This document shows positions 5,759 through 54,389 of a DNA stretch of 64,000 bases, piece by piece. The stretch covers positions 1,980 through 65,979 of the forward strand of contig JAJCZP010000260.1 of NCBI GenBank assembly GCA_029262315.1, given 5' to 3'. The position numbers and the translations under genes were made by a program. Origin of the DNA: Deltaproteobacteria bacterium (GTDB lineage Bacteria > Desulfobacterota > Binatia > UTPRO1). The stretch's first letter is position 1. Every line of letters starts with the position of its first letter. Below the pieces are notes generated by a model. It saw nothing but the letters and a program-made list of their open reading frames with translations. It was not told the DNA's origin and ran no database searches.

Positions 5759-5990
5759 GATCCGGGACGGCAAGATCGTCCAGCCGAAGGAGTGGCTCGA
5801 TACCCTGCACGCCAACGAGATCCCGTGCGGCCCCGCGGCAGCCATCGACTTCGCAGAGCGCCGCAAGTAGTCGCGCAGGAACGCAACCGAACCACCCCGA
5901 CCTTGCAGATCCGCATGATTCGTTGCCACGTAGACACCTGATTTCATTGACATTCTAGTGGCATCGTGGTTGCTCCCTTAGGAAACCATC

Positions 5991-6278
5991 ATGCTACCCC
6001 TCCTCGTCATACTGAACGTCCTGATGCAGCTTTTTGATGGGGTAGCGACCTACGTCGGCTGGGAGCAACACGGCGAGCTTAACCCGCTTCTCCGCTTGGG
6101 CTTCGAACACCTGGGTGTCCTGACCACGCTCACCACCGCCAAGCTCACCGCCATCATCCTCGTCCTCTCCCTCGCCAGGCTCCCACGCCCGACGTTGGCC
6201 ATCTACGGCCTGACGCTGACTTTCAGCGTCTACACGGCACTGTCGTTCGTTCCTTGGAGCGTTCGGCTCCTGAACTAG
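5991..6278 (+). CDS. Small membrane protein, DUF5658-like (N-x-x-D-G-x-x-T ... E-x-NP ... KL pattern)
   Basis: LNVLMQLFDGVATYVGWEQHGELNPLL ... LTTAKL. An AT-richer upstream region has a TTGACA box and GGAAACC before the ATG. Confidence 0.5.
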   Translation: MLPLLVILNVLMQLFDGVATYVGWEQHGELNPLLRLGFEHLGVLTTLTTAKLTAIILVLSLARLPRPTLAIYGLTLTFSVYTALSFVPWSVRLLN

Positions 6279-6310
6279 TCTCCCGAGCGGGCTTTCGGTT
6301 GGGGTATTGC

Positions 6311-6401
6311 GCCCGTGGGGCGGAGGCATTGCGTAGCGCCTGCGCCCTGGGCTGAGCGCCCGGTCTGCTCCGGCGCTACGCAACGCCTCCGCCCCACGGG
6401 C
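6311..6401. repeat. 30-bp inverted repeat (1 mismatch) with a 31-nt spacer between convergent genes; a second 7-10-bp hairpin lies at ~6415-6447
   Basis: Arm 1 (6311-6340) is gcccgtggggcggaggcattgcgtagcgcc. Arm 2 (6372-6401) is ggcgctacgcaacgcctccgccccacgggc. Confidence 0.8.
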
Positions 6402-6489
6402 GCGATCGCACGGCGACGCTCGCTCCAGAGGCAAGAGCGTCGCGCCAGGAACGGCGCGCGGTCGGGCGGTGTACTCCGCGTGCGGGGGA

Positions 6490-7815
6490 CTAGGGCTGGC
6501 AGTCTGCGGCTATGTTGGCTGGTTCGGCGTCGTCCATGGGGTAGAAGACTAGGCCGGTCAGGAGCTTTGGGTGAAAGAAGGTGGATTTGGCGGGCATGGT
6601 GAGGCCAGCTTCACTGACGTCTCGGATGGCGGTCAGGTCGGTCGGGGGGAGGAGGAAGACACCCTGGACCTCGCCACGCTCGGCGGCAGCGAGCGCAGCA
6701 CATGCGTCTTGCACGTAGCGGATCTCATCGGAACCACCGCGATCGTCGAGTGTGAGCCCAAGCGCTCGCTCGAAGATCACGCGGTGCAGGGCCGTGACGT
6801 CGAGGGCGCGGAGCTCGCTTGGGGTCTCGGCGGCGAATGGGAGCTCGGCGGCTGGTGCGGTGAGGCGCCAGAACGCGGGGCTGCCAGCCATGCCGACGAC
6901 CAGGCGGATGGTGCCAGGCGTGGCGGCCTCGGTCTCGACCCACCTGCTGGCCGCAGCGATGTTGGCTTCGGACCACGGGACGTCCTCGACGCGGAACCAC
7001 TGCGCCAGGGTCCGACGTAGGTCGGCGGCGGATACGGCGATGCGCGGCAACACACGGTGGGTCGGAAAAACGACCAGGCCCGGATCCTCGAGGGTGGTCA
7101 GATACGCCATGATGTAGTCGTAGCTCGCCGCCCCGGGCGCGGGAGCGGCGCCTCCCAACGCGGCGCGCGCTTGCGCTTGATAGTTGAGAGCGGTCTCGTA
7201 CCGATGGTGCCCATCGGCGATGAACACGTGGCGCTTGGCAACGCGTGCACGCACGGCACCAATCACCGCGGGATCGGTGATGCACCATACCCGGTGACGG
7301 ATGCCCCCCTCGTCGACGACGTCGAGGTCGGCGTCGCGCGCGGGAGTGATGCTGGCGAACGTCCAATCCGGATCCGAGACCAGACCCATGATCGGCGACA
7401 AGGTCGCGCGACAGGCCTCGGTCAACCGGAGGCGATCGGCCTTCGCATGCTGGCGGGTCTTCTCGTGGCGGAGGATCTCGCTCCGATCGAGCCGGAGGGC
7501 CACGATCGCGCCAATGCGCTCGCGGGCGTTCCCGTCGGGCATCGGAAACCGTTGCGCGTATAGATAGACCGCGGGGGCCGCGTCACGAACGAGCGCACCG
7601 GACTGCCGCCATCGACCGAGCGTCGATGCCGCGTCCGCGTACGGGTCGGTCGCGGCGCTCAGATCGATCCGGACCGCGTTGAAGTCGCTGCGCGCGTACA
7701 GCTGCCCGCGCGCGGCATCATCGATCACGTCGTACGGAGGCGCCACGACCGCGGTTAGGTCTCCGACGATTGTCGGATCGTATCGAAGTCCACAGAAAGG
7801 AGTGAGCGTTGCCAC
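6490..7815 (-). CDS. DUF1015 family protein
   Basis: N-terminus MATLTPFCGLRYDP ... VVAPPYDVI ... FIADGHHRYETAL is typical of DUF1015. It is co-directional and 20 nt downstream of tsaC. Confidence 0.8.
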   Translation of the reverse strand: MATLTPFCGLRYDPTIVGDLTAVVAPPYDVIDDAARGQLYARSDFNAVRIDLSAATDPYADAASTLGRWRQSGALVRDAAPAVYLYAQRFPMPDGNARERIGAIVALRLDRSEILRHEKTRQHAKADRLRLTEACRATLSPIMGLVSDPDWTFASITPARDADLDVVDEGGIRHRVWCITDPAVIGAVRARVAKRHVFIADGHHRYETALNYQAQARAALGGAAPAPGAASYDYIMAYLTTLEDPGLVVFPTHRVLPRIAVSAADLRRTLAQWFRVEDVPWSEANIAAASRWVETEAATPGTIRLVVGMAGSPAFWRLTAPAAELPFAAETPSELRALDVTALHRVIFERALGLTLDDRGGSDEIRYVQDACAALAAAERGEVQGVFLLPPTDLTAIRDVSEAGLTMPAKSTFFHPKLLTGLVFYPMDDAEPANIAADCQP

Positions 7816-7835
7816 GCGATCCGTCCTCAGCTTGC

Positions 7836-8465
7836 TCAGTCGTGCTCGGGGAGAGTGATTGGCATGGAGCCGAGCGCATCCCGAATCGCTTCGATCGGAA
7901 CGGCCCCCGACCTCACCACGTGTACTGCGTCGGCGCCGATGCTTACCACGGTCGAGGGAGCCCCGCCAGCGAGTATGCCTCCGTCGACATACGCCGACAC
8001 GCCCGTCCCGAAATAGGCCTGTGCGTCCTCGAGCCGGTCGGGTGGGGACGCGCCGGCCGGATTGGCGCTCGTCGCCGTCAACGGCTCGCCGACCGCCGCC
8101 GCAAGCGCCCGTGCGATGGGATGTGCCGACACGCGAACCCCGATCGCGCCCTCGGCCGTCAGCTCGGGAGGCAGCGACGGCCGGGCCGGCAGCACGAGCG
8201 TGAGCGGTCCCGGCCAGAAGAGAGACATCAGCCGACGCGCCGCCAGCGGCGGCGCGAGCAGCAGCCCCTCGGCCATCGCGATGTCGCTCGCTATCACCGC
8301 GATCGGGCTCGACGCATCACGCCCCTTGACGCCTGCGACGCTCGCCACCGCTGCCGCGCTCAGTGCTCGGGCACCAAGCGCGTAGAGCGTCTCGGTGGGA
8401 TACACCACCATGCGCCCCGAGCGGAGGGCCTCGATTGCGGCGCCGAGATCAGCGGTGTCGGTCAC
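7836..8465 (-). CDS. tsaC: L-threonylcarbamoyladenylate synthase TsaC/YrdC
   Basis: [13 protein letters not shown] ... ATSANPAG YrdC/Sua5 motifs. Confidence 0.8.
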
Positions 8466-14999: not shown

Positions 15000-16487
15000 T
15001 CAATCCAGGCCGAAAACCGTATCGGTCAGGTCCCCGGCAACCGACAGCGCCGAATCGCCAACGCACCCTACCGAGAACTCAGGATCGAACAGACAGCCAT
15101 CCAGCCCCGTCGTCGAACCACACTTCTGGATGACGCCGTCGACCTTGTCCTTCAGCTTGGCGAGCGCCTCGGCGTGCTCGGTCGCACAATCGACAGCCAC
15201 GGCTGCGGTGATGTTGTCGAGTTCGCAGCGCCCGAGAATCTTCAGTCCCTTGGCGATGGCCTTGCCGCTTTGCTTCAACAACTGACGCTGACACGAAACC
15301 GTCTTCCCAGCGATGACATTCGCGGGCAGATCGGGTGGCGCGGTGCCGAGCGCGGCCGTCAGGGTAGCATCACGCCCCTCGTCCTGGCGGCACACGAGGC
15401 AATCGACGAGGCCCTCGTACGTGTTAGTCTGAATGGCGCCGCACCCGCCCCCACACACATCGGGATACCCGATAAACGAAGGCGACAGGTTGTTCCCGTC
15501 GCAGCGACGATCCTTCGCACCGCCTATCCGCTCGCGCAGCTTCGCTTCGGCGTTCTCGATCTTCAGGTCGCGTCGGGCCGTATCGCAGGCCACGCCCTGC
15601 ACCTCATCGAGGTAGCAACGGTTCCACTCTTTCGAATGCCTCTTGGCGAAGCGTTGAAAGTTCTTGTCGATCTCGCGGAAACAGGTGGACCGGTTTTCGG
15701 CGGATGCCAGCGGCGTTACGACGCCAAACGCCTGAATCGGTACGTCGATGATCGGCTCGTCCGGATCATCCGACACGATGCGGAAATCGTCGTTCAGGAA
15801 GACGAAACCGGCCGGCGTGAATTGGATCTCGACAATGATGCTCGAGTTGATGGGAATCGTGACCGGCAGCGCTGGTCCGCTTACGGCAAGCTCGGGATCG
15901 GTCCCATCGACCAGCCCGTACGACGTCACCTCCAGCGGCACCGAGCTTCCGTTGTTGAAGATCTCGATCCCCGCCGTCGCAAGCTCCCCAGCTTCTCCAA
16001 TGATCGAAAGGTCCGTCGGAGCGACACGGATGTCGTGCGGCACGAGACACGACGCCACCATCGGCGTGATGAACGTGTGCCAGTCGCTCGGCGCACCGTT
16101 GGCCAGCAGGAAGTTGCTGCACGAATATCCCGGCAACGTGAGGTAGGTCATGATCTCATCGCCGTTCGTGAAACCGTCGCTGTCGCTGTCGTCGCCCTCG
16201 ATGTCCAGCAACGACTGCGTCACCGTCTTACCGAGATAGAGCTGCTGCTCCACGGCACCGCCGAACTGATTGCGCGCGCCCGTCCCGGTCCACTTGATGT
16301 GACACACACCACACGCGTTCAAGTTGTCACTGCCACCGATCCCGTAGAGGGTCGTGAACGCATCGAAATAGGTCGGCCGTGCGTGCGCCATCGAAACTGT
16401 CAGAATGAGAGCACCGACGGCGCACCCCGCCAACGCGATCCGCCGCGCCAAAGGCACTCTCGCCGTCGCGCTCATCGTCGTACTCAT
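15000..16487 (-). CDS. Secreted monoheme c-type cytochrome with a DxDxDG Ca-binding loop, a beta-sandwich region and a C-terminal ~225-aa Cys-rich module
   Basis: Signal peptide; one CxxCH (CGVCH); DSDSDGFTNGDE. The C-terminal module is homologous to those in the two upstream genes. Its start overlaps the upstream stop (ATGA). Confidence 0.75.
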   Translation of the reverse strand: MSTTMSATARVPLARRIALAGCAVGALILTVSMAHARPTYFDAFTTLYGIGGSDNLNACGVCHIKWTGTGARNQFGGAVEQQLYLGKTVTQSLLDIEGDDSDSDGFTNGDEIMTYLTLPGYSCSNFLLANGAPSDWHTFITPMVASCLVPHDIRVAPTDLSIIGEAGELATAGIEIFNNGSSVPLEVTSYGLVDGTDPELAVSGPALPVTIPINSSIIVEIQFTPAGFVFLNDDFRIVSDDPDEPIIDVPIQAFGVVTPLASAENRSTCFREIDKNFQRFAKRHSKEWNRCYLDEVQGVACDTARRDLKIENAEAKLRERIGGAKDRRCDGNNLSPSFIGYPDVCGGGCGAIQTNTYEGLVDCLVCRQDEGRDATLTAALGTAPPDLPANVIAGKTVSCQRQLLKQSGKAIAKGLKILGRCELDNITAAVAVDCATEHAEALAKLKDKVDGVIQKCGSTTGLDGCLFDPEFSVGCVGDSALSVAGDLTDTVFGLD

Positions 16488-18904
16488 GGGTACACCACCC
16501 TCGTGTGCTCATCCACAATGTCGCCGATCGCCGCCTCCATACACGCCTGCGTGGTCGGAGCATCGCCACCGATCGCGCACCCCTGGAGACCGCCGAAGTC
16601 CGTACAACGCGCGATCTTGTTGCCGGCCTTGGTCATCGCTTTCGCTATCTTCCCGTCCGGATCGGTCGAGCAATCGAGCGCCGGATTGTTCTTGCCACTC
16701 GCGTTCGCCTGCTCACAACGATCGAGCGCCTTGGTCCAACCGAGAGCCAGACTGCTCGCAGCTTTCGAGAGCGTGCGCTGGCACGTAAGGGCGCTGGCCG
16801 GCAGGCCCCCCGGAACATCTGGCGGCGCGGCCCCGTACGCCGAGTCCAACGCTGCCGCGTCGAGGGCGTCGGCCATACAAATGGCGCAACTCGCAAGATC
16901 CGCCATTTCGAACAGCAGAATGCCGCTGCACGGCGCTGGGCACACGGCATCGTGGCCGAGTGAACCCGGGGTCAAGCTTCGACCGGCACATTTCCGATCC
17001 TTCAAGCCACCGATCTTGTCACGAAGCTTGGCCGCGGCGGCCGCGATCTTCTCATCACGTCCTCCGTCGTCGCACGTGAGGCCTTTGGTCTCGGTGTCGA
17101 AGCAGCGCGTCCACTCCTTGAGGTGACGCTTGCGGTACTTCGCCTGCTGCCGCGCGAGATCCTTGCGGCACCCGTTCACGATCTTGGCGTCCGACTCGAC
17201 GAAGAGGTTCGCCATCTCGACCGGAAGCGATTTGTTGTGCTGCTCCCAGAGATCGAACAGGATGTTGCCGGCCGCGTTCGTGGTGTTCTCGTCCCGCAGA
17301 AACTCGATGTATTCGCGCGATGCCGTTTGGTAGTAGAGCGTCACTTCCGCCTGCACCGCCTCCGGACCCACAGGGTAGACGACGTCGTCCCAGTACTGAC
17401 CGTCGGCGTACGCTTGCCCGACCGGCTCACCATCGAAAGCGTCGAACGCCGCGTTGGTGAACCCGCGGGGCGGGATCCGGTTGTCGAAGAACCGCTTGTT
17501 GTTCAGCACCACATGAAAACTGTTGCCTTCCGGCACACCGGTCGCGGCAGCGGCCGCGGCCGTCAAACCGTAGTCGGCTCTCCAGATGTGCAGATCAGGA
17601 TCATGGCCGGGATCGTTCGGATCGAGACCGGCGCCCTCGATCGTCGAGGTCGCGAAGACATAGCGACCCGATTCGAAGACGACGTTCCGACTGGCGTCGA
17701 GCGCACGCACGTGCAACCACATGCGCCGCCCCTCGGGATACCCCGTGGGAAGCTTGTGGCCGCTCTCGTTCGTGACGCGCACCGTGAGGTTGCCACCCGA
17801 AAAATCGGCGGAGACGCTCGCGGCCTTGCGCAGCATCTTGGTTGCTTCGACGATGCCATCATTCAGGATGTCGGCATCGACTTCAGCGCCGAACGCGGGA
17901 TGATGCGGCAAGACGGCAGGGATGAAGGTATTCCCTCCCACCATCGTATGCAGCGGGATATCGTCCCGGACGAGTCCGACGTTGGCGTCACGCCCAGTGA
18001 CATCGGGAAAGTGGCAGTCCTGACAACTAGAGACGACGTCCTTGTTGCCACCGAACTGGGGCGCGAACACTCCTGTCGCGGCGTACTCGCTTTCCTTCCA
18101 TTCGTCGTACGTAGATTGCTCGGGAAAACCGAGCGCGGGATCGCCAGGGGCATCGAGTGCATTGAAATCGTACTCGTCGGTGATGGCGTTGTACGTATAG
18201 GTGGGGATCCGAACGTTGTGACACGTCCCGCATAGATCGGAACTCTCGTGGAACGGCGAGATCAACACCGAGCGATCTGGCAGGTGCGGATCGGAGCCGA
18301 GATCGCCGATAATGTCGAACGGTCCGCGCATGCGATCCAACGGATCGATCACGAACATCGCATCCGCCAGGACCGGCACTGGCTCCGCAAGGCCGGCCAA
18401 GATTGCAACGTCCTCGGCCGGATGCCCTGGCGCACCGAACGGGTCGACCATGCGGTGACACACGCCGCACTGCACTCCGTGGCGGTCGTCGGCCGTCATC
18501 ATGCTGCCGTCCGTGGCGGCTGATCTGCCCTCGAGCCACCCCTTGGGGAGATGGCATCGCAGGCAGGTCTCGCCGGACTTGCTGGCGTCCTGATTGGCAA
18601 TGGCAAGCCCCGCCCACATCAGCGGGTCGCGACCTGCCTGCGCCATCATTGAACCCTCCCAATTGCGCCATGGCTCAACGTCAGGCTGGCCATAGTCGGC
18701 ATGGCAGGGAGTACAGGTATCGGGTGTTGGTATGTCGTCTGTAATCGTCAGCGGCTGCGTTCCGGGTAACCGGAAGTCGTTGGTCGTCGTCGCCAGCGGG
18801 AGCTGTGCCCGCGCCGGCACGATCGAAACGAGGAACAGCATGGGGAGTGCCAGAAGCACTCCCCATGCCGACCGTATACCCAGTCCGAGTCGCAGTTCGA
18901 TCAT
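16484..18904 (-). CDS. Secreted pentaheme c-type cytochrome with a C-terminal Cys-rich module
   Basis: Signal peptide. Five CxxCH motifs: CTPCH, CLRCH, CGVCH, CGTCH, CQDCH. C-terminal 230 aa are homologous to the C-terminus of gene 15000..16487. Confidence 0.85.
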   Translation of the reverse strand: MIELRLGLGIRSAWGVLLALPMLFLVSIVPARAQLPLATTTNDFRLPGTQPLTITDDIPTPDTCTPCHADYGQPDVEPWRNWEGSMMAQAGRDPLMWAGLAIANQDASKSGETCLRCHLPKGWLEGRSAATDGSMMTADDRHGVQCGVCHRMVDPFGAPGHPAEDVAILAGLAEPVPVLADAMFVIDPLDRMRGPFDIIGDLGSDPHLPDRSVLISPFHESSDLCGTCHNVRIPTYTYNAITDEYDFNALDAPGDPALGFPEQSTYDEWKESEYAATGVFAPQFGGNKDVVSSCQDCHFPDVTGRDANVGLVRDDIPLHTMVGGNTFIPAVLPHHPAFGAEVDADILNDGIVEATKMLRKAASVSADFSGGNLTVRVTNESGHKLPTGYPEGRRMWLHVRALDASRNVVFESGRYVFATSTIEGAGLDPNDPGHDPDLHIWRADYGLTAAAAAATGVPEGNSFHVVLNNKRFFDNRIPPRGFTNAAFDAFDGEPVGQAYADGQYWDDVVYPVGPEAVQAEVTLYYQTASREYIEFLRDENTTNAAGNILFDLWEQHNKSLPVEMANLFVESDAKIVNGCRKDLARQQAKYRKRHLKEWTRCFDTETKGLTCDDGGRDEKIAAAAAKLRDKIGGLKDRKCAGRSLTPGSLGHDAVCPAPCSGILLFEMADLASCAICMADALDAAALDSAYGAAPPDVPGGLPASALTCQRTLSKAASSLALGWTKALDRCEQANASGKNNPALDCSTDPDGKIAKAMTKAGNKIARCTDFGGLQGCAIGGDAPTTQACMEAAIGDIVDEHTRVVYP

Positions 18905-43535: not shown

Positions 43536-44234
43536 ATGAAGAAGCAAAAGCAAGCGACCCTGAATCTGCCAGATCAACCGCGCTGGGGCGGGCGACGTGC
43601 CGGGGCCGGCCGGAAGCCCGGCCCGCACCCCCGCCTCGCGCATCGCAGTCGACCGAAGTTCTCCTCGCTCCCCGCGCACGTCACGTTGAAAGTTCGGCCG
43701 GGGATCCCTTCATTGCGCACGCTTCGGATGGTCCGGGAGGTCGAGCAGTCGTTCGCGCGCGGATGTTCGCGACCAGGCTTTCGGTTGGTGCACTACTCGC
43801 TGCAGAGCAACCACGTACATCTGATCGTCGAGGCGTCGACCCGTGACGCTCTCGGCCGTGGGATGATGGCCATCGCCGGACGTCTGGGGCGCACCGTCAA
43901 TCGAGTGTGCGAGCGATCTGGCAGGGTGTTAGCGGATCGCTACCACCTCCGCGTCCTGAAAACGCCCCGCGAGGTCCATGCGGCGCTGCGCTACGTACTC
44001 CTGAACGCTCGTCGCCATGCGACACGCCTCACCCGTCGCGCCAAGAGCCCACGACTCGATCCGGCCTCATCGGCTCGGTGGTTTGATGGTTGGCGTGCGA
44101 GAACCCGTCGGTGGATGGTGGTGGACGCCCCCGGCGCGGATGAAACTCCACCGATCGCGCGCGCTCGAACATGGCTCCTGAAAACGGGTTGGCGCCGCTA
44201 CGGCCTCTTCGATCCGGCGGACGTGCCGGGCTGA
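43536..44234 (+). mobile_element. REP-associated tyrosine transposase (RAYT) / IS200-like Y1 HUH transposase CDS
   Basis: HUH motif HVHLIV and catalytic-Tyr region RYVLLN. The N-terminal GRKPGPHPRLAHRSRPKF region is typical of RAYTs. Confidence 0.75.
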
Positions 44235-44257
44235 CGCCAACACGAGGAGCTACCCCA

Positions 44258-44720
44258 ACGCGGCGGCGGCGGCGCGGAATGGGACGGCTCGGGCGGGAGC
44301 GCAAGGCCTCCTTCCTCCTTGACCACACGATGCTGAGATCAAGAGCGGGTGGCGAAGGGGCGAGGACGCCACCGGGTAGCACGGCCGACGCGGCGGCGGG
44401 AAACGGGACGGCTCGGGCGGGAGCGCAGGCCTCCTTCCCTCTTAACCACACGCTTCTGAAATCAAGAGCGGGCGGTTGAGGGGAGTGGCAGCCACCGGGT
44501 AGCACGACCGGCGCGGCGGTGGGGGAACGGGACGGCTCGGGTTGCAGCGCGGGCATCCTCCCCTTAACGACACGCTTCTGAGATCAAGAGCGGGTGGCGA
44601 AGGGGCGCGGAAGCCACCGGGTAGCACGGGCAGCGGGTGCGCGGAATGGACAGGCCGGGCGGGAGCGCAGGCCTCCTTCCTCCTTAACCACCAGCTTCTG
44701 AAACCAAGAGCGCGGAGCGG
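44258..44720. repeat. Tandem array of ~3.7 copies of a ~122-bp repeat (REP/BIME-like), immediately downstream of the RAYT gene
   Basis: Units start at ~44258, 44389, 44511 and 44633. They share the cores gggacggctcgggcgggagcgcaggcctccttcctccttaaccac ... cttctgagatcaagagcgggtggcgaagggg ... gccaccgggtagcacg. Confidence 0.8.
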
Positions 44721-44980: not shown

Positions 44981-46675
44981 ATGTCTAGACTTGGAGATCT
45001 TCTCGTCCGCCGAGGCGAGATCGAGGAAGCGCAGCTGGAGCGGGCGCTCGGTGAGCAGCGGACCAACGGGGGCGCGCTTGCGAGCCACCTGGTCAAGCTG
45101 GGACTGATCGCGGAGGACGCACTCCTTTCGTACCTGCAGAAGGAGTACCGGCTGCCGGTCGTCGACCCTTCGAGCCTCGAGATCGAGCCCGAGGTATTGG
45201 CGCTCATTCCAACGCAGATGGCGCACAAGCACCACATGATCCCGGTCAATCTGGTGCGCTCGACCTTGACGATGGCGATGGCGGATCCATCGAACCTGAT
45301 CGCGATCAACGAAGTCAAGTTCCTCACGAGCTACGACGTCAAGATCGCCGTCGCGGGCGCGACGGCGGTTCAACGTGCGATCGACCGCTACTACGACGCC
45401 GGCTCGAGCTACGACGACGTCTTGAACGAGATCGACGGCGGCGACGACGTCCAGCTCGTGCAGAGCGAGGAGGAAGTCAACCTCCAGGAGCTCGAACGCG
45501 CCACCGAGGAGGCGCCTGTCGTCCGCCTCGTGAACGCCCTCATGATGGACGCGATCAAGAAACGGGCGAGTGACATCCACGTCGAGCCCTACGAGAAGAT
45601 CCTCCGCATCCGTTTCCGGATCGATGGCGTATTGCACGAAGTGATGCAGCCACCGATCAAGCTGAAGAACGCGATCACCTCGCGTATCAAGGTCATGGCC
45701 CAGCTCGACATTGCCGAGCGTCGGATGCCGCAGGACGGCCGCATAAAACTGAAGATGACGCGCAACCGCGAGATGGACTTCCGCGTCTCGGTCCTTCCCA
45801 CCATATTTGGCGAGAAGGTGGTGCTCCGCCTCCTCGACAAGTCGAATCTTCAGCTCGACATGACGAAGCTCGGTTTCAGCGAACGTGCCCTCGCCGACTT
45901 CAAGGACGCAATCTACAAACCGTTCGGCATGGTGCTGGTCACCGGCCCGACGGGCAGCGGCAAAACGACCTCGCTCTACTCGGCCCTCTCCGAGCTCAAC
46001 AAGGTGACGTCGAACATCTCGACCGCGGAGGATCCTGTCGAGTTCAACCTCATGGGCATCAACCAAGTACAGGTGCACGAGGAGATCGGCTTGTCGTTCG
46101 CGGCGACGCTGCGATCCTTTCTACGGCAGGATCCGGACATCATCATGGTCGGTGAGATCCGCGACTTCGAAACGGCCGAGATCGGCGTCAAGTCCGCCCT
46201 CACGGGGCACCTCGTGCTCTCGACCCTGCACACCAACGACGCCCCCTCCACCATCAACCGACTCCTGAACATGGGCATCGAACCCTTCCTGGTCGCGTCC
46301 TCCATCAATCTCATCATGGCGCAACGCCTCGTGCGCGTGCTCTGCCCAGGATGCCTTGAAGAAACCGAGATCACGCCCGAGGCGTTGGTCGCCATCGGCA
46401 CGCCGCCCGAAATGGCAGAGACCATGCGCTGCTACCAGGGGGCCGGCTGCTCGTCGTGCAGCGGCACAGGCTACAAAGGTCGCATCGCACTCTACGAGGT
46501 CATGCCGATGACCGACGGCCTGCGCGAGGTCATCCTCGCAGGCGGCTCCAACAGCGAGATCAAGCGTGCGGCCATCGACGCCGGCATGGACTCCCTTCGC
46601 CGAAGCGGCATCGACAAGATCGCCGAGGGCGTCACATCAATTGATGAAGTCCTGCGGATCACCATGCCCGACTGA
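44981..46675 (+). CDS. pilB: Type IV pilus assembly ATPase PilB
   Basis: GSPII N-terminal domain. Walker A GPTGSGKTT. Tetracysteine CPGC ... CSSC. Confidence 0.9.
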   Translation: MSRLGDLLVRRGEIEEAQLERALGEQRTNGGALASHLVKLGLIAEDALLSYLQKEYRLPVVDPSSLEIEPEVLALIPTQMAHKHHMIPVNLVRSTLTMAMADPSNLIAINEVKFLTSYDVKIAVAGATAVQRAIDRYYDAGSSYDDVLNEIDGGDDVQLVQSEEEVNLQELERATEEAPVVRLVNALMMDAIKKRASDIHVEPYEKILRIRFRIDGVLHEVMQPPIKLKNAITSRIKVMAQLDIAERRMPQDGRIKLKMTRNREMDFRVSVLPTIFGEKVVLRLLDKSNLQLDMTKLGFSERALADFKDAIYKPFGMVLVTGPTGSGKTTSLYSALSELNKVTSNISTAEDPVEFNLMGINQVQVHEEIGLSFAATLRSFLRQDPDIIMVGEIRDFETAEIGVKSALTGHLVLSTLHTNDAPSTINRLLNMGIEPFLVASSINLIMAQRLVRVLCPGCLEETEITPEALVAIGTPPEMAETMRCYQGAGCSSCSGTGYKGRIALYEVMPMTDGLREVILAGGSNSEIKRAAIDAGMDSLRRSGIDKIAEGVTSIDEVLRITMPD

Positions 46676-46819
46676 GCGGGCGGTGCGCCACGCTCCGAAC
46701 CGGCAATTTCGTGACGAGACGGCGCCGAATGACGCCGCCAGACGAAAAAGACGCAGCCCCGGCAACGGCGCCCGTGGCATGTCGCTTGCTCTCTGCAGTA
46801 GCCGTCAGGGACCCGTCTC

Positions 46820-47923
46820 ATGGTGAACATTCAAGATTTTCTTCAGCTGATGCTCGAAGCGGGCGCGTCCGATCTGCACATCACCCAGGAGAGCCCGCCC
46901 CTCATTCGCGTACATGGCGAACTGCGTCCGCTAGCGTATCCACCGCTCACCGCCACCGATACGCGAACGCTGTGCTACAGCATTCTGACCGAGGCGCAGA
47001 AGAAGAAGTTCGAGGAAGACAGCGAGCTCGACTTCTCGTTCGCCGCGGCCGGTGTCTCGCGCTTTCGCGGCAATCTCTATCTCCAGAAGGGCGCTGTCGG
47101 CGGGGCCTTTCGCGCGATTCCCTACGAGATTCCCGCCCTCGACACCCTCGGACTCAGCAAGGCGGTTCTCGATCTCGCGGAGCTGCCCCGTGGCCTCGTG
47201 CTGATTACCGGCCCGACGGGCAGCGGCAAGTCGACGACCCTCGCGGCGATCATCGACAAGATCAACGAAACCCGGCCCGAGCACATCATCACCGTCGAGG
47301 ATCCCATCGAGTTCGTGCATACGCACAAGCGCGCGATGGTGAACCAACGCGAGGTTTTCGCCGACACGCAGAGCTTCGCCAAGTCACTGAAACACGTACT
47401 GCGGCAGGATCCGGACATAGTCCTCATCGGTGAGATGCGTGACCTCGAGACAATCGAGGCCGCGCTGGTCGTCGCCGAGACGGGTCACCTCGTGTTCTCG
47501 ACACTACACACCAACTGCGCCGTCCAGACGATCAACCGTGTCATCGACGTGTTCCCGCCGCATCAGCAGGAGCAGGTACGCGCCCAGCTCTCGCTGGTGC
47601 TGCAAGGCGTGGTGTCGCAACAGCTGCTACCGCGTTGGGACGGACGCGGGCGTGTGCTCGCCGCCGAGGTCATGGTCCCGAACCCCGCCATCCGCAACCT
47701 CGTCCGCGAGGCGAAGGTGCACCAGATCTACTCGCAGATGCAGGTCGGCCAACAGAAGTGGCACATGCAAACGATGAGTCAGGCCCTGATCAGCCTGCAT
47801 GAGCGCAAGCTGATTACAGCCGACGAGGCCCTCGCGCACGCCACCGAGCCAGAAGAGATGAAGACGTTGCTGGCGCAGTTCGGTGACGGACCAAGTCCCG
47901 TGCGACGGGCGGCACGACAGTAG
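46820..47923 (+). CDS. pilT: Twitching motility ATPase PilT
   Basis: GPTGSGKSTT, the AIRNLVRE motif; typical 367 aa. Confidence 0.9.
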   Translation: MVNIQDFLQLMLEAGASDLHITQESPPLIRVHGELRPLAYPPLTATDTRTLCYSILTEAQKKKFEEDSELDFSFAAAGVSRFRGNLYLQKGAVGGAFRAIPYEIPALDTLGLSKAVLDLAELPRGLVLITGPTGSGKSTTLAAIIDKINETRPEHIITVEDPIEFVHTHKRAMVNQREVFADTQSFAKSLKHVLRQDPDIVLIGEMRDLETIEAALVVAETGHLVFSTLHTNCAVQTINRVIDVFPPHQQEQVRAQLSLVLQGVVSQQLLPRWDGRGRVLAAEVMVPNPAIRNLVREAKVHQIYSQMQVGQQKWHMQTMSQALISLHERKLITADEALAHATEPEEMKTLLAQFGDGPSPVRRAARQ

Positions 47924-47946: not shown

Positions 47947-49164
<1,218 letters not shown>

Positions 49165-49166
49165 GG

Positions 49167-51188
49167 ATGACGGCTCACGAGGGGACGAACGACGGAAACG
49201 TTGGCCTGCGCCGGCGTCTCGGCTGGCTGCTGATCGTCCGGCTGGGCCTCGTATCGCTCTTTCTCGCCGTTGCGGCAGTCGTCTACCGCCCGCATGCAAC
49301 CGAGACCCTCGATCCTCGCCTCGGACTGCTCGCGCTCGGATACGGCGTCACCGCGATCTCCGGGCTTCTGCTCGGACGTGTACGCAGGATTCTGGCCTTC
49401 GCGGGACTGCAACTCGCCGTCGATCTCGCGCTCGTCAGTCTCGTGATCCTCGTCACGGGCGGGCTCGATAGCCCACTGGCGGTTCTGTACAACGTCGTGA
49501 TCCTGAACGCCGCCCTGCTCGGACTGGGCCCTGGAATCACGGCGACCGCGGCAGCGGCTGCGGCTGTCTACGGCGGATTGATGACGACACTGGCGCTCGA
49601 AGCGCCCGCCAGCCTGCCGATGGGGCCCTACATCTTCAGCCACACGACCATCGTCGCGTCATTCTTGGTGATTGCCGCGCTTGCCCGCTATCTCGGCACA
49701 CAACTCGCCGTCGCCGAGTCACTCCTCGTCGAACGGCAAGCCGAAATCGGACGGATCGAAACGCTGCAGAGTCTGGTCGCCAACACCCTCGACCACGGGC
49801 TCGTGACCACGGACAGCAGCGGTCGGGTCCAGACGTCCAATCCCACCGCGGCCGAGATCCTCGGGACGCACCCCCCCGTGGGAGCCTCGCTCGACGTAAG
49901 CTTGCCGGGAGCCGCGATGCTTCCGATTGGTGGCGCGCCAACGGAGCTGGCCCTCGGCGCAGAGGGCGAGTCGTCGCGGTTGGTCCGCGCGAAAGTCGCC
50001 GAGGTCACCGACACGTTCCAGCGACCAGTCGGCCGCATCTACGTGCTCCAGGACGTGACGACCGTTCGGGAGATGGAGTCCAAGCTCCGCGATCAGGAAA
50101 CGATCGACGCGTATGCTGCCAGGGCCGTCCAAACACACGACGACGCTCCCATCGCGGCGTTCGAAGGCCTCGTCGGTGAGAGCGAGCCGATGCGACGGGT
50201 CTATAGCCTGATCGACAAGGTTGCACCTTCCGATTCCACCGTCCTCATCACGGGGGAAAGCGGCACGGGCAAAGAGCTCGTCGCCCGCGCGATCCATCAG
50301 CGGAGCCCGCGACGCGACCGCGACTTCGTGGCGGTGAACTGTGGAGCCATCCCCGAGTCCCTGATCGAGAGCGAACTCTTCGGCCATGTCCGCGGCGCGT
50401 TTACTGGTGCCGTCGTGGACCGACCTGGCCTCTTCCGCCAAGCGCATGGCGGCACGATCTTCCTGGATGAGATCGGCGAGCTTCCCTTGGCGATGCAGGT
50501 CCGACTCCTGCGGGTACTCCAGGACCAGCAACTCGTTCCCGTCGGAGGTACCGCCACAACGACGGTCGACGTCCGCGTCGTCGCGGCGACCAATCGCAAC
50601 CTCGAACGTTCCGTCAGCGAGGGCGCCTTCCGCGAAGACCTGTACTACCGCTTGAACGTCATCCGCATCGAAACCCCCTCGCTCCGGGAACGCCCCGAGG
50701 ACATACCGCTCTTGCTCACGCACTTGCTACAGACCTGCTCTGCCCGGCACGGCAAGATCGTCGAGCGGGTCTCGCCCCGCACGATGCGAGCGCTCGTGAC
50801 CTACAACTATCCCGGCAACGTTCGCGAGCTCGAGAACGCCGTCGACCACGCGATCACCCTCTGCGAGGGCGACGCCCTGACGGAGCACGACCTGCCGGCG
50901 CAGTTGCACTCCCCGCCCGACACGCCGAGCGGCCCGACTCCGACGACGACTCCGGGGTCAGCCGCGCCGACACCGCCGCGGCTGACCCCGGGACTCGACC
51001 TCGACGACCAGCTCGCCACCTACGAGAAGGACATGATCCTCGCCGCGCTCGATCAAGCGCAGGGCGTCCGGAAACACGCCGCGGAGATCCTTGGCATCAA
51101 GTACCGAAGCCTGCGGCACCGGCTCTCGAAGTACGGACTGGCCATCACTGACGAGGACGACGGGCTCGGATCGAGCACCGCCTCTTAG
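49167..51188 (+). CDS. Membrane-anchored sigma-54-dependent activator: PilS-like 6-TM sensor region + PAS fused directly to a PilR-like AAA+/Fis HTH output (no kinase or receiver domain)
   Basis: Six N-terminal TM helices, a PAS-like segment, then GESGTGKE, GAFTGA and ESELFGH sigma-54 interaction motifs, and a C-terminal HTH. No HisKA/HATPase or D-containing REC is seen. Confidence 0.8.
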   Translation: MTAHEGTNDGNVGLRRRLGWLLIVRLGLVSLFLAVAAVVYRPHATETLDPRLGLLALGYGVTAISGLLLGRVRRILAFAGLQLAVDLALVSLVILVTGGLDSPLAVLYNVVILNAALLGLGPGITATAAAAAAVYGGLMTTLALEAPASLPMGPYIFSHTTIVASFLVIAALARYLGTQLAVAESLLVERQAEIGRIETLQSLVANTLDHGLVTTDSSGRVQTSNPTAAEILGTHPPVGASLDVSLPGAAMLPIGGAPTELALGAEGESSRLVRAKVAEVTDTFQRPVGRIYVLQDVTTVREMESKLRDQETIDAYAARAVQTHDDAPIAAFEGLVGESEPMRRVYSLIDKVAPSDSTVLITGESGTGKELVARAIHQRSPRRDRDFVAVNCGAIPESLIESELFGHVRGAFTGAVVDRPGLFRQAHGGTIFLDEIGELPLAMQVRLLRVLQDQQLVPVGGTATTTVDVRVVAATNRNLERSVSEGAFREDLYYRLNVIRIETPSLRERPEDIPLLLTHLLQTCSARHGKIVERVSPRTMRALVTYNYPGNVRELENAVDHAITLCEGDALTEHDLPAQLHSPPDTPSGPTPTTTPGSAAPTPPRLTPGLDLDDQLATYEKDMILAALDQAQGVRKHAAEILGIKYRSLRHRLSKYGLAITDEDDGLGSSTAS

Positions 51189-51479
51189 GCTGCGACGCAT
51201 GACACAGCGAACACTGCGAGACTCGCATCACACACCCGCGCACGCCAGAGCGCTGACCTGTTCGAGCGGCGCGTTTGTGACGGGCATTTTTTGTCAGTGC
51301 ATCAGAAAGCGTCGGTCGCTAGCGGAGTTGGAGCGCGGGAACAATGCGTTCTGGTACGGGCTGCGCCCCACCGGTCGCATGGTGGCCGCGGCAACAGACC
51401 GCAAAGCTGGCGCGGAAGCACGCGTTCATCCGAGAGTTTTTGTCCGCGGAAATTTACGCCGGTGCCACCGATCCATCCT

Positions 51480-51495
51480 TGGCACCGGCCTTGCT
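51480..51495 (+). promoter_or_regulatory. Sigma-54 (-24/-12) promoter TGGCAC-N5-TTGC upstream of pilA
   Basis: ttGGCACcggccTTGCt read directly, ~62 nt upstream of the pilA ATG. Confidence 0.6.
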
Positions 51496-51556: not shown

Positions 51557-51946
51557 ATGACCAAAAGAACCAATGAATCGGGTTTCACACTGATCGAGCT
51601 TCTGGTCGTGGTAGCGATCATCGGAATTCTCGCTGCCATCGCCATTCCACAGTTCGCCGCGTATCGGGCGAAGGGTTTCGACGCGCGCTCCTCGAGTGAC
51701 TGCCGCAATGCGGCGACGGCTCTCGAGGCGTTCTTCGTCGACAACGCTACCTATGCGGGCGCAACAGCAGCCACCCTGCCGGGCTTTGTCCAGTCGGCCG
51801 ACGTTGCCGTGACGATCACGGGTGCCGTTACGAACTTCACGGTCGGGTGTTCGAGCACCAAGGGCACGACAGGCTACACGTGCAATTGGAACAGCGCCCC
51901 AGCCGCGGGCAACCCGAACATGGTCTGTGGTGTCGCTGCACCGTAA
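51557..51946 (+). CDS. pilA: Type IV major pilin PilA
   Basis: Prepilin leader MTKRTNESG|FTLIELLVVVAIIGILAAIA with Glu+5. 129 aa with a C-terminal Cys pair. SD AGGAGGGAAG. Confidence 0.9.
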   Translation: MTKRTNESGFTLIELLVVVAIIGILAAIAIPQFAAYRAKGFDARSSSDCRNAATALEAFFVDNATYAGATAATLPGFVQSADVAVTITGAVTNFTVGCSSTKGTTGYTCNWNSAPAAGNPNMVCGVAAP

Positions 51947-51966: not shown

Positions 51967-52008
51967 CGGCGCGGGCGGGCCTTCGGGCTCGCCCGCGCCT
52001 TTCTTTCT
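51967..52008 (+). terminator. Rho-independent terminator after pilA (ggcgcgggcgggcc-ttcg-ggctcgcccgcgcc followed by tttctttct)
   Basis: Perfect ~13-bp GC stem plus a T-rich tract, read directly. Confidence 0.75.
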
Positions 52009-52021
52009 GGGAGGAAGTGCC

Positions 52022-53614
52022 GTGCCCGTCCGTCTCATCTTTCATATGCTCTGGGTAGCCACGGCACTCCGCGTACTCGTCCCGTCCTTCGCGGACCCAG
52101 ACCTCTGGGGTCATGTGCTCTTCGGCTCCATTCTTCTTGGCGGAGCACTCCCCGCCGTCAACGGATTCGCCTACACCGCGGCCGATCATCCGTGGGTGAA
52201 CCACGAACTACTCGCCGAGATCTCGATGGCCGCCGTCTTCAACGCCGGCGGTGCCGGCGGGCTGATCGCGTTCAAGGTCGGCCTCGGGCTCGCCACCCTT
52301 TTCTTGGTCTGGCGCGCGGCGTTCCATCGGACGCACAATCACGTCGCGAGCGGCATCGCGACCGCCGTCGTCGCCATCGCCATGACGCCGGGCTTCATGA
52401 TCCGACCACAGATCTTCACCCTGCTCTTCCTCGCGGCGACGCTCGCCGAACTCGCCAAGGTCGACTATCGCCCACGAGGCATGGTCTGGGGGTTGCCCCT
52501 TCTCTTCGTCGTATGGATCAATACCCACGGCGGCGTGCTGGCGGGCCTCGGGCTCGCCGGCGTCGGCGTCGTCGCGGCGCTCGCGGGACGCTGGCGGAGC
52601 GGCGAGCGCCGACTGCCTGACGTAGTCACGAGCGGCCTGTTCCTCGCGACGCTCGCCTTGGCCTTGCTCCTGAACCCCTGGGGTGTCGGACTCCTGGACT
52701 TCCTCGCGACCGACGTCACGCCACAAGTGGCCATCACCGAGTGGGCGCCCGTCTCACTGACGGACGCCTCGTTCCCGATGTTCAAGGTGCTCCTGATCCT
52801 GGTCGCGGCATACTGCCTGCTCGGCCGGAACATTCGCCTTCCTGAAGCGGCCATCGCGGTCGCCGCGGGGATCGTCGCCATCATGCACCAACGCCACATC
52901 CCGTTGTTCGCGATCGCCGCGACGCCGATCATCGCGACCGCGGTCGCGCAGTGGTGGGACGCGCCGACACGAGAACCCTTGCGACGCTTGGCCTACGGCC
53001 TGTGCGCTGTGCTTGCCGTCGTGCAGCTCGGAATTGCCACAACCGCGGGCATCGCGGCCCGCGGCCAGATCTTCGTCAATCCATGGCACTACCCGGTGCA
53101 AGCTGTCCGGTTCCTCGCCCAGAACGACATCGCGGGCAACGTCGCCCTGCCCTTCCAGTGGGGCGAATACGCGATCTGGGCGCTCCCCTCAGGATCGCGT
53201 GTCGCCGTCGATGGTCGATTCACGACCGCCTATCCGCAGACGCTGCTGAGCTCCGTCTGGCGCTTCATGAGCGGAGAGCCACAGTGGGATACCCTCCTGA
53301 CCGACTATCCGACCGACATCGTCATCAGCGACCGCAATCACGCGCCGGCGACGCTCCTGCGCGATCATGAGGAATGGGAGTACGTCTACTCCGATCCAGT
53401 CAGCGTGGTGTTCATCCGGCATGTAGACTCGCAGGCGGACACGCTCGCGCGCTTCCACGGCGGCTCGCTACGCTACGACAACAGCCCGCTCGATACGTCG
53501 TTCCCTGGCCCGTACCAGGGAAACACCGACGCCGAAGCCCCGTTCGTGCCCACGGCGGACTGCCGACTCACGGCGGACACCCCCCCTGGCGCAGAGCGCC
53601 CAGACTTCTGCTAA
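52022..53614 (+). CDS. Polytopic membrane protein (GT-C-fold-like) immediately downstream of pilA; possible pilin-modifying glycosyltransferase
   Basis: ~11 TM helices and a large periplasmic C-terminal domain. RBS GGGAGGAAG. An alternative ATG lies at 52046. Confidence 0.6.
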   Translation: MPVRLIFHMLWVATALRVLVPSFADPDLWGHVLFGSILLGGALPAVNGFAYTAADHPWVNHELLAEISMAAVFNAGGAGGLIAFKVGLGLATLFLVWRAAFHRTHNHVASGIATAVVAIAMTPGFMIRPQIFTLLFLAATLAELAKVDYRPRGMVWGLPLLFVVWINTHGGVLAGLGLAGVGVVAALAGRWRSGERRLPDVVTSGLFLATLALALLLNPWGVGLLDFLATDVTPQVAITEWAPVSLTDASFPMFKVLLILVAAYCLLGRNIRLPEAAIAVAAGIVAIMHQRHIPLFAIAATPIIATAVAQWWDAPTREPLRRLAYGLCAVLAVVQLGIATTAGIAARGQIFVNPWHYPVQAVRFLAQNDIAGNVALPFQWGEYAIWALPSGSRVAVDGRFTTAYPQTLLSSVWRFMSGEPQWDTLLTDYPTDIVISDRNHAPATLLRDHEEWEYVYSDPVSVVFIRHVDSQADTLARFHGGSLRYDNSPLDTSFPGPYQGNTDAEAPFVPTADCRLTADTPPGAERPDFC

Positions 53615-53627
53615 AGTTGGACTTACG

Positions 53628-54389
53628 ATGGACGTGACGGCGATCACGACGGTCTTCGTATTCGGAACGATCGTTGGTAGCTTTCTGAACGTATGCATTG
53701 CCCGCCTGCCCGAAGGCCAGTCGGTGGTCGCGCCACGCTCGCGGTGCCCCGGCTGTAAGACGACCATCGCCTGGTACGACAACCTCCCGGTGCTCAGCTA
53801 TGTCGCGCTCGGTGGACACTGCCGGGCCTGCGGCATCGACATCTCGGCGGTCTATCCAATGGTGGAGGTCGTCACTGGCGCTCTCGCGGTGGCCTTGTGG
53901 ATGGAACTCGGGCCGACGCTCGCCTTCGCCGGGTACTCCGTGTTCGCCGCCGCCCTGATCACGATTACTTTCATCGACCTCGACCACCAGATCATCCCCG
54001 ACGTCATCTCGCTTCCGGGTATTGCCCTCGGCCTGGCGTTCTCGTTGGTCTCGCCACTCGTAACGCCGCTGGACTCGCTGTTCGGGGTTCTCGCCGGGGG
54101 AGGCTCCCTCCTCGCCGTCGCCTGGAGCTATCGCCTCATCCGCGGCCAGGACGGCATGGGAGGCGGAGACATCAAGCTCCTGGCAATGATCGGCGCCTTC
54201 CTGGGGTGGCAGAGCATTTTCGTCACCGTCATGGCCGCGTCGATCGTCGGCTCGGTCATCGGCCTGGCAACGATGCTCTACCGTCGCGCCGACACCCGCC
54301 TCGCCATCCCCTTTGGTCCGTTCCTCGCGGGCGGGGCGCTGATTCATCTGTTCTTCGGCGAGCAGATCCTCCGTTTCTACTTCCCCTAA
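53628..54389 (+). CDS. pilD: Prepilin peptidase PilD (A24 family)
   Basis: Zn-finger CPGC ... CRAC, with catalytic Asp motifs in DGMGGGDIKL. Confidence 0.88.
   Translation: MDVTAITTVFVFGTIVGSFLNVCIARLPEGQSVVAPRSRCPGCKTTIAWYDNLPVLSYVALGGHCRACGIDISAVYPMVEVVTGALAVALWMELGPTLAFAGYSVFAAALITITFIDLDHQIIPDVISLPGIALGLAFSLVSPLVTPLDSLFGVLAGGGSLLAVAWSYRLIRGQDGMGGGDIKLLAMIGAFLGWQSIFVTVMAASIVGSVIGLATMLYRRADTRLAIPFGPFLAGGALIHLFFGEQILRFYFP

Follow-up and report, generated by a model that had tools for sequence, protein, structure and literature searches.

A conserved fusion of a PilS-type membrane sensor with a PilR-type sigma-54 activator in the pilus loci of uncultured bacteria

The fused regulator gene between pilC and pilA

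We analysed a 64,000-nucleotide stretch of DNA (64 kb; the window) from a Deltaproteobacteria bacterium (GTDB class Binatia; GenBank assembly GCA_029262315.1, contig JAJCZP010000260.1, positions 1,980 to 65,979, forward strand). The window carries a type IV pilus (T4P) cluster in the order pilB-pilT-pilC-X-pilA, followed by genes for a 530-amino-acid (aa) membrane protein, PilD and a GspH-like minor pilin. Here, X is a fused regulator gene (49167..51188, +), defined from its open reading frame (ORF), Pfam, homologues and an AlphaFold model. It comprises 673 codons in one frame without interruption, and encodes a protein of 673 aa. The ATG of X starts 2 nt after the pilC stop codon. An earlier note, made from the sequence alone, had placed the gene between pilC and pilA; pilC indeed ends at 49164 and pilA starts at 51557. 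In Myxococcus and Geobacter, this slot holds pilS-pilR.

The N-terminal part of the regulator (aa 15-186; 49209..49724, +) is a PilS-type six-helix membrane domain. It matches 6TM_PilS (Pfam PF25323) with an E value of 1.5e-8 and 35 bits against the curated cut-off of 27, and the same domain was found in 26 of 26 diverse homologues. In the AlphaFold2 model, built on 116 homologues (mean pLDDT 88.6), the transmembrane (TM) helices span residues 10-39, 50-68, 75-96, 103-117, 123-145 and 152-207, the last one extending into the cytoplasm. Reading the sequence, we noticed that the arginine clusters RRR15-17 and RVRR71-74 and a basic stretch after TM6 all share one side. The topology is thus predicted to be N-in/C-in, with the PAS, AAA+ and helix-turn-helix (HTH) domains in the cytoplasm.

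A cytoplasmic PAS domain follows (approximately aa 197-300, ending in D296-V-T298; 49755..50066, +). On the regulator sequence alone its signal is weak (Pfam E 0.071 and 0.2 when aa 180-345 were scanned at E ≤ 10). The PAS segment proposed in the earlier note is nevertheless upheld by the homologues, 19-22 of 26 of which match PAS families, by a match of the family profile to the cytoplasmic PAS domain of WalK (1.2e-11), and by a five-stranded PAS-type sheet at 211-296 in the model. A signalling helix (aa 298-322) and a linker of about 10 residues (323-334) then span the fusion junction (50059..50168, +), as delimited by the model and phmmer. The linker is variable in sequence and of lower model confidence.

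The output half begins with a sigma-54 AAA+ activator domain and its lid (aa 335-585; 50169..50921, +), recognized by Pfam, homologues and fold match. Sigma54_activat covers aa 335-502 (E 2.6e-73) and AAA_lid_14 covers aa 507-585. We located the Walker A motif GESGTGKE at 363-370, the sigma-54 contact loop GAFTGA at 410-415, and the Walker B residues D434-E435. The AAA+ domain superposes on NtrC1, ZraR, FleQ and FlrC at a root-mean-square deviation of 1.5-2 Å. Searching the whole model against the PDB by Foldseek, we retrieved AAA+ domains alone and no solved relative of the TM module. A Pro/Thr-rich linker (590-605), disordered in the model, precedes a Fis-type HTH (HTH_8; aa 616-656; 51012..51134, +), which is called by Pfam (E 7.7e-11) and present in the model. 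Pfam matches, motifs and the six-helix model agree with the PilS-like membrane domain, sigma-54 activator and Fis HTH that had been read from the sequence. As it combines TM helices with DNA binding in a single polypeptide, the regulator falls under the definition of a transmembrane transcription regulator (PMC10269533).

The earlier note had further stated that no kinase or receiver domain is detectable, and our scans lead to the same result. Response_reg, HisKA and HATPase_c gave no Pfam match on the whole protein at E ≤ 1, on aa 180-345 alone at E ≤ 10, or in the 26 diverse homologues. The (beta-alpha)5 receiver fold is also absent from the AlphaFold model. The distance from the end of the PAS domain to the first AAA+ strand is 37 residues, consisting of a 25-residue helix and about 10 flexible residues. 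Thus, there is no room for a receiver or kinase domain. The earlier note had also raised the matter of a separate pilS or pilR elsewhere in the genome. Within the 64-kb window there is none: a six-frame motif scan, which is crude and misses receiver-only proteins, found no second GAFTGA protein, kinase H-box or G2-box.

Origin, conservation and the pilA promoter

Performing a phmmer search with the sensor half (aa 1-333) against 1.84 billion cluster representatives, we obtained 1308 matches at E ≤ 0.001. The best 150 of these 1308 include 11 fusions of the same kind, which are the top-scoring full-length matches, and 115 histidine kinases. Nine kinases were sampled with Pfam; 9/9 have 6TM_PilS, PAS and HisKA, and 7/9 also have HATPase_c, which is the PilS architecture. 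The sensor half is 25-38% identical to the kinases over aa 13-320. The kinase matches end at query aa ~310-325, while HisKA starts at 317-344 in the kinases. Since the matches end where HisKA begins, the whole sensing module was kept, including the PAS-proximal signalling helix, and the part from the H-box onward was replaced. A PilS-type sensor module is joined to a PilR-type AAA+/HTH output exactly at the point where the phosphotransfer domain of PilS kinases starts.

The two groups also share individual residues. Arg25, the sole charged residue of TM1, is present in 37 of 37 fusions and 102 of 103 kinases. Common to the 37 fusions and 103 kinases are Q82 and D86 in TM3, T97-G98-G99 and S102 in the TM3-TM4 loop, and N225, D296 and T298 in the PAS domain. 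In comparison, S65, P103, E184, R274 and T283 are found as shared residues in the fusion clade alone. REC-AAA+-HTH proteins, around 465 aa long and named PilR by JGI, have 53-57% identity to the output half (aa 325-673), which we consider likely to be PilR-derived.

A neighbour-joining tree of aa 10-320 places 36 of 37 fusions in one clade and leaves one protein, P0228, outside. The monophyly of all fusions, suggested by our first neighbour-joining tree, was discarded, as that tree included about 45 residues of the output domain. P0228 (660 aa; locus L028, 403-2385) has the full 6TM-PAS-AAA+-HTH architecture and lies directly upstream of pilMNOPQ, not pilA. In its sensor half, the nearest sequences are histidine kinases (43% identity) and not members of the main fusion clade. 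This hints at an independent second fusion event, on the strength of one sequence and one simple tree. Another protein with this sensor module, P0146 (751 aa), carries 6TM_PilS, PAS and about 20 HisKA residues joined to a beta-lactamase-fold domain (PF00144) and DUF3471. Either the sensor module has been given another unusual output here, or the gene call is chimeric.

We find that 116 of the best 120 database matches are full-length homologues of the same architecture, with 39-90% identity. More than 110 protein clusters (41-90% identity), mostly from Candidatus Binatia MAGs (metagenome-assembled genomes), have this architecture. Walker A and B, the arginine fingers and the HTH residues are invariant or almost so across these 116 homologues. 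GAFTGA is fully invariant in the 26 diverse homologues, and invariant or at least 90% conserved per position in the 116. About 20 independent loci retain the order pilC-X-pilA; in these, the sensor match continues into a GAFTGA protein and a pilin gene with a near-identical N-terminus (GFTLIELLVVVAIIGILAAIAIPQF) follows 250-700 nt after X. Every locus, including that of the separately branching lineage, is linked to pilC/pilA or pilMNOPQ. The loci are assigned mostly to Candidatus Binatia, some to Deltaproteobacteria or Polyangiaceae UTPRO1, and one to Acidiferrales. An uninterrupted architecture in more than 110 clusters and about 20 loci answers the concern of the earlier note that a frameshift might have produced a fused pilS + pilR annotation artefact. 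Two related loci do carry frameshifts (L010, 5932-7966; L023, ~5960-7982), which fall inside domains and not at the pilS/pilR boundary. These are plausibly sequencing errors, or else real pseudogenes. The frameshifted orthologues belong to the MAGs of isolates MFD09212 and MFD04944. Short database entries with AAA+-HTH only trace to short contigs or frameshifted assemblies.

Downstream of X, pilA (51557..51946, +) encodes a type IVa major pilin with the leader MTKRTNESG followed by FTLIELL; Glu5 and Pro22 are present in the mature protein. By motif search, we identified the -24/-12 sigma-54 promoter of pilA, TGGCACCGGCCTTGC (51480..51494, +). It is the sole zero-mismatch occurrence of TGGCAC-N5-TTGC in the 64 kb, and the pilA ATG follows it by 62 nt, in line with the canonical promoter reported in the earlier note. 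All 19 X-pilA spacers have a -24/-12 element with a score of 8 or more out of 10, and in 11 of them it is perfect. No sigma-70-like promoter was found in the X-pilA spacer. An intrinsic terminator (51968..52009, +), with a 14-bp stem of which 13 are G-C pairs and a subsequent T-run, follows pilA. Because of this strong terminator and the lack of a sigma-70-like promoter in the spacer, pilA appears to be a monocistronic sigma-54 unit.

The spacer contains two further conserved blocks. The first, GTGACGGGCATTTTTTGTCAGTGCATC (51277..51303, +), precedes the -24 element by about 200 nt and is a candidate enhancer, or upstream activating sequence (UAS). Footprinting seven loci, we obtained the consensus GTGACGG(T/G)CA-(A/T)5-6-TGTCAC, fixed at -204 to -177 from the -24 element. 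The copy at 51277-51303 is the only exact match to this block in the 64 kb. More distant loci retain the A/T-run followed by TGTCAC. The second block (51333..51367, +), located some 130 nt before the -24 element, emerged from an alignment of seven intergenic regions and has the consensus GCGC.CGCAATGCG.TCTCGTACACGAAGCGGCG in relatives. It might be an IHF site or the site of a second regulator.

Proposed function and alternative explanations

We think it probable that the regulator is a membrane-integral, one-component sigma-54 enhancer-binding protein (EBP), which activates the adjacent pilA and is gated by membrane pilin without phosphotransfer. From its anatomy and conserved context, a bypass of the phosphorelay and the regulation of pilA are the most likely consequences. 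The conserved context suggests that the regulator would bind the candidate UAS, some 200 bp away from the sigma-54 promoter of pilA, and its ATP hydrolysis would open this promoter. On the model of P. aeruginosa PilS, unassembled pilin in the inner membrane would touch the TM domain, the contact being made by the TM1 arginine and Glu5 of the pilin. Such gating is possible because the TM1 arginine is invariant. PilS Arg24 and pilin Glu5 and Pro22 are reported to be needed for PilS to interact with PilA (PMC6528607, citing Kilmury and Burrows 2016); Arg25 may be the counterpart of Arg24, and the PilA of the window has both Glu5 and Pro22. By analogy with other EBPs, in which N-terminal domains keep AAA+ inactive, the TM/PAS/helix module would hold the regulator inactive when pilin is abundant, probably as a dimer; the sign of this control is our guess. 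Depletion of pilin would then leave the AAA+ domains free to form an active ring, causing pilin homeostasis.

The regulator would have to reach its promoter from the membrane. As X sits immediately upstream of its target, with the pilA promoter about 290 nt away from the gene, co-translational membrane insertion would keep this promoter near the membrane-bound activator. Access to DNA from the membrane is plausible by analogy, as membrane-bound transcription factors are widespread (PMC10269533). A bolder version of the proposal is a membrane-embedded sigma-54 activator whose ring assembly is gated by pilin through a kinase-type module, and which starts pilA at a locus that co-translational insertion of its own products holds at the membrane. 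We put this version forward only tentatively. Such a fusion may have evolved repeatedly, as P0228 branches with the kinases and not with the main fusion clade.

Several observations weigh against the pilin-gated activator. Because PF25323 takes in RegB and the ammonia sensor GrtK as well, the TM domain alone does not imply pilin sensing. Almost all type IVa pilins have Glu5 and Pro22, and their presence in this PilA therefore says little. Assembling a ring from six subunits that bring six TM helices apiece, and reaching DNA with it, would also pose a problem of geometry, and the predicted UAS, at about 200 bp from the promoter, is farther away than typical. The PilR relationship has its own difficulties. 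The genomic context of two PilR-labelled relatives is mixed, one adjoining two pilin genes and another lying away from pilus genes. The NifA and NtrC models of NCBIfam, a collection that has no PilS or PilR model, score alike on the regulator and all below cut-off. Since EBP AAA+ domains are highly conserved in general, being closest to PilR is a weak argument. Finally, all members of the family come from uncultured MAGs.

The use of PF25323 by RegB and GrtK raises the question of whether a protein of the same architecture and with the same target senses a different membrane or redox cue, such as the quinone pool, the membrane state or a small molecule, and not pilin. In the fusion clade, the periplasmic loop between TM3 and TM4 bears a T-G-G-x-x-S-P motif (aa 97-103) that hardly varies and may resemble the GGXXNPF quinone site of RegB, and the PAS domain could bind a ligand. 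However, every locus is strictly linked to pilC/pilA or pilMNOPQ, as would be expected of a pilus-specific role, and the very arginine implicated in pilin sensing is invariant. Moreover, the alignment of 26 diverse homologues shows no conserved Cys or His in the PAS domain for a redox cofactor. We therefore regard a different cue as unlikely, although it deserves to be kept in mind.

The geometry problem would vanish if the membrane form were a tethered, inactive precursor and proteolysis of the linker released a soluble AAA+-HTH activator, which could form its hexamer away from the membrane. The variable residues 323-334, with their lower model confidence, would suit a cleavage site. Yet the loci share no conserved protease gene or cleavage motif, the AAA+-HTH-only entries are products of short contigs or frameshifted assemblies, and membrane-bound transcription factors that are active without release are well documented (PMC10269533). 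Taken together, we give proteolytic release only a slight chance. An assembly, annotation or decay artefact, in which a frameshifted or deleted pilS-pilR pair is non-functional like gonococcal Rsp, seems very improbable. In its favour, Rsp is a fusion of this kind that reportedly plays no part in pilE transcription, and two related loci do bear frameshifts. Against this, more than 110 clusters keep the open frame and the catalytic motifs down to 39% identity, no remnant of HisKA, HATPase or REC is left, the sigma-54 promoter is conserved, and the L010 and L023 frameshifts lie away from the junction.

Comparing the fusion regulator with the PilS-PilR system (P. aeruginosa, and also Myxococcus and Geobacter), we find the same genomic slot, a sigma-54 pilA promoter as the probable target, the 6-TM+PAS sensor fold, the AAA+/Fis-HTH output, and a TM1 arginine conserved in the kinases and the fusion regulator. 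In contrast, the fusion regulator is one polypeptide, not two, and lacks the DHp/HisKA and HATPase domains of PilS and the receiver of PilR. It is membrane-integral, whereas PilR is cytoplasmic (PMC6058289). The idea of a fused PilS-PilR is not wholly new, and gonococcal Rsp is the closest published precedent. Rsp is a fusion of pilS-like nps and pilR-like npa, so that, as in the fusion regulator, a PilS-type membrane N-terminus and a PilR-type C-terminus are found in one protein (PMC10269533, PMC6528607). Rsp is described as the remnant of a decayed two-component system in one species and reported not to control pilE. Judged against its published descriptions, the family described here is ancient (39-90% identity) and conserved, and has an intact sigma-54 promoter.

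Other one-component regulators share parts of this design. In D. vulgaris, 15 of 37 EBPs are of the soluble one-component PAS/GAF-AAA+-HTH type (PMC4641369). In these, as in the fusion regulator, a sensor is fused straight to AAA+ and there is no phosphorelay; they are cytoplasmic, whereas the fusion regulator adds a six-helix membrane domain of the histidine-kinase family. Regulators of the ToxR/CadC/TcpP class (PMC10269533) have a TM region and a DNA-binding domain together and act from the membrane, like the fusion regulator. They are mostly single-pass, with winged-helix outputs and sigma-70 promoters, while the fusion regulator is six-pass, would need AAA+ oligomerisation and would work with sigma-54. 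In the census of transmembrane regulators, HTH_8 accounts for 72 of 50,302 (PMC10269533), and the string 'Sigma54' does not occur in the portion of the census supplement text that was searched. Our literature search, with most subscription journals outside its range, found no TM-anchored sigma-54 activator other than Rsp.

What appears to be new is a conserved, apparently functional, phosphorelay-free and membrane-integral PilS-PilR fusion family. In the textbook picture, sigma-54 activators are soluble ring ATPases and PilS-PilR is a phosphorelay. Judging from the family, the sensor module of a histidine kinase may be able to control AAA+ assembly, which is a quite different output. The fusion would offer a minimal system, made of one protein, in which to study signal reading by the PilS membrane domain and its relay through PAS and helix. 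The membrane-bound transcription factors, a poorly understood class, would likewise gain a sigma-54 member. Database pipelines already recognise the domains, but the label 'response regulator PilR' sits on many members though these lack a receiver domain.

The remaining pilus cluster and flanking features

The first gene of the cluster is pilB (44981..46675, +), an ORF for the T4P extension ATPase, whose counterpart in the related locus L001 has MshEN and T2SSE domains. It is followed by pilT (46820..47923, +) for the retraction ATPase, called from its ORF and from T2SSE in the counterpart genes of relatives, and by pilC (47947..49164, +) for the platform protein (Pfam T2SSF, E 2e-70). A weaker sigma-54-like -24/-12 element, TGGCATGTCGCTTGC (46775..46789, +), is a one-mismatch match situated 31 nt upstream of the pilT ATG. 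A GTGACG motif resembling the candidate enhancer (46709-46720) lies about 60 nt upstream of it. Elements of the TGGCATGTCGCTTGC type occur at the same offset in L013 and L015 and in no other loci. Judging from these motifs, the element could drive pilT-pilC-X and thereby lead to autoregulation in a subclade.

After pilA comes the gene for the 530-aa polytopic membrane protein (52022..53614, +), an ORF with no family match in Pfam or NCBIfam. Close relatives (L001 and L005) have a similar-sized gene in this slot, and the distant L003 and L006 have one for a YfhO-family protein. The 530-aa protein may be a pilin-modifying enzyme. The prepilin peptidase gene pilD (53628..54389, +) follows, with Pfam matches to A24_N_bact and Peptidase_A24. 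In L001, a UTPRO1-type locus, two adjacent stand-alone receiver-domain genes (15995-16838) come after the minor-pilin genes. An Rfam scan of the window gave no match.

Just upstream of pilB, the window (43536-44712) carries a Y1_Tnp transposase homologue, IS200-like and 232 aa long (Pfam E 8.7e-5). Four tandem copies of a ~123 bp repeat (44261-44712) stand directly after it. The homologue and its repeats look like a REP-associated tyrosine transposase with a repeat array.

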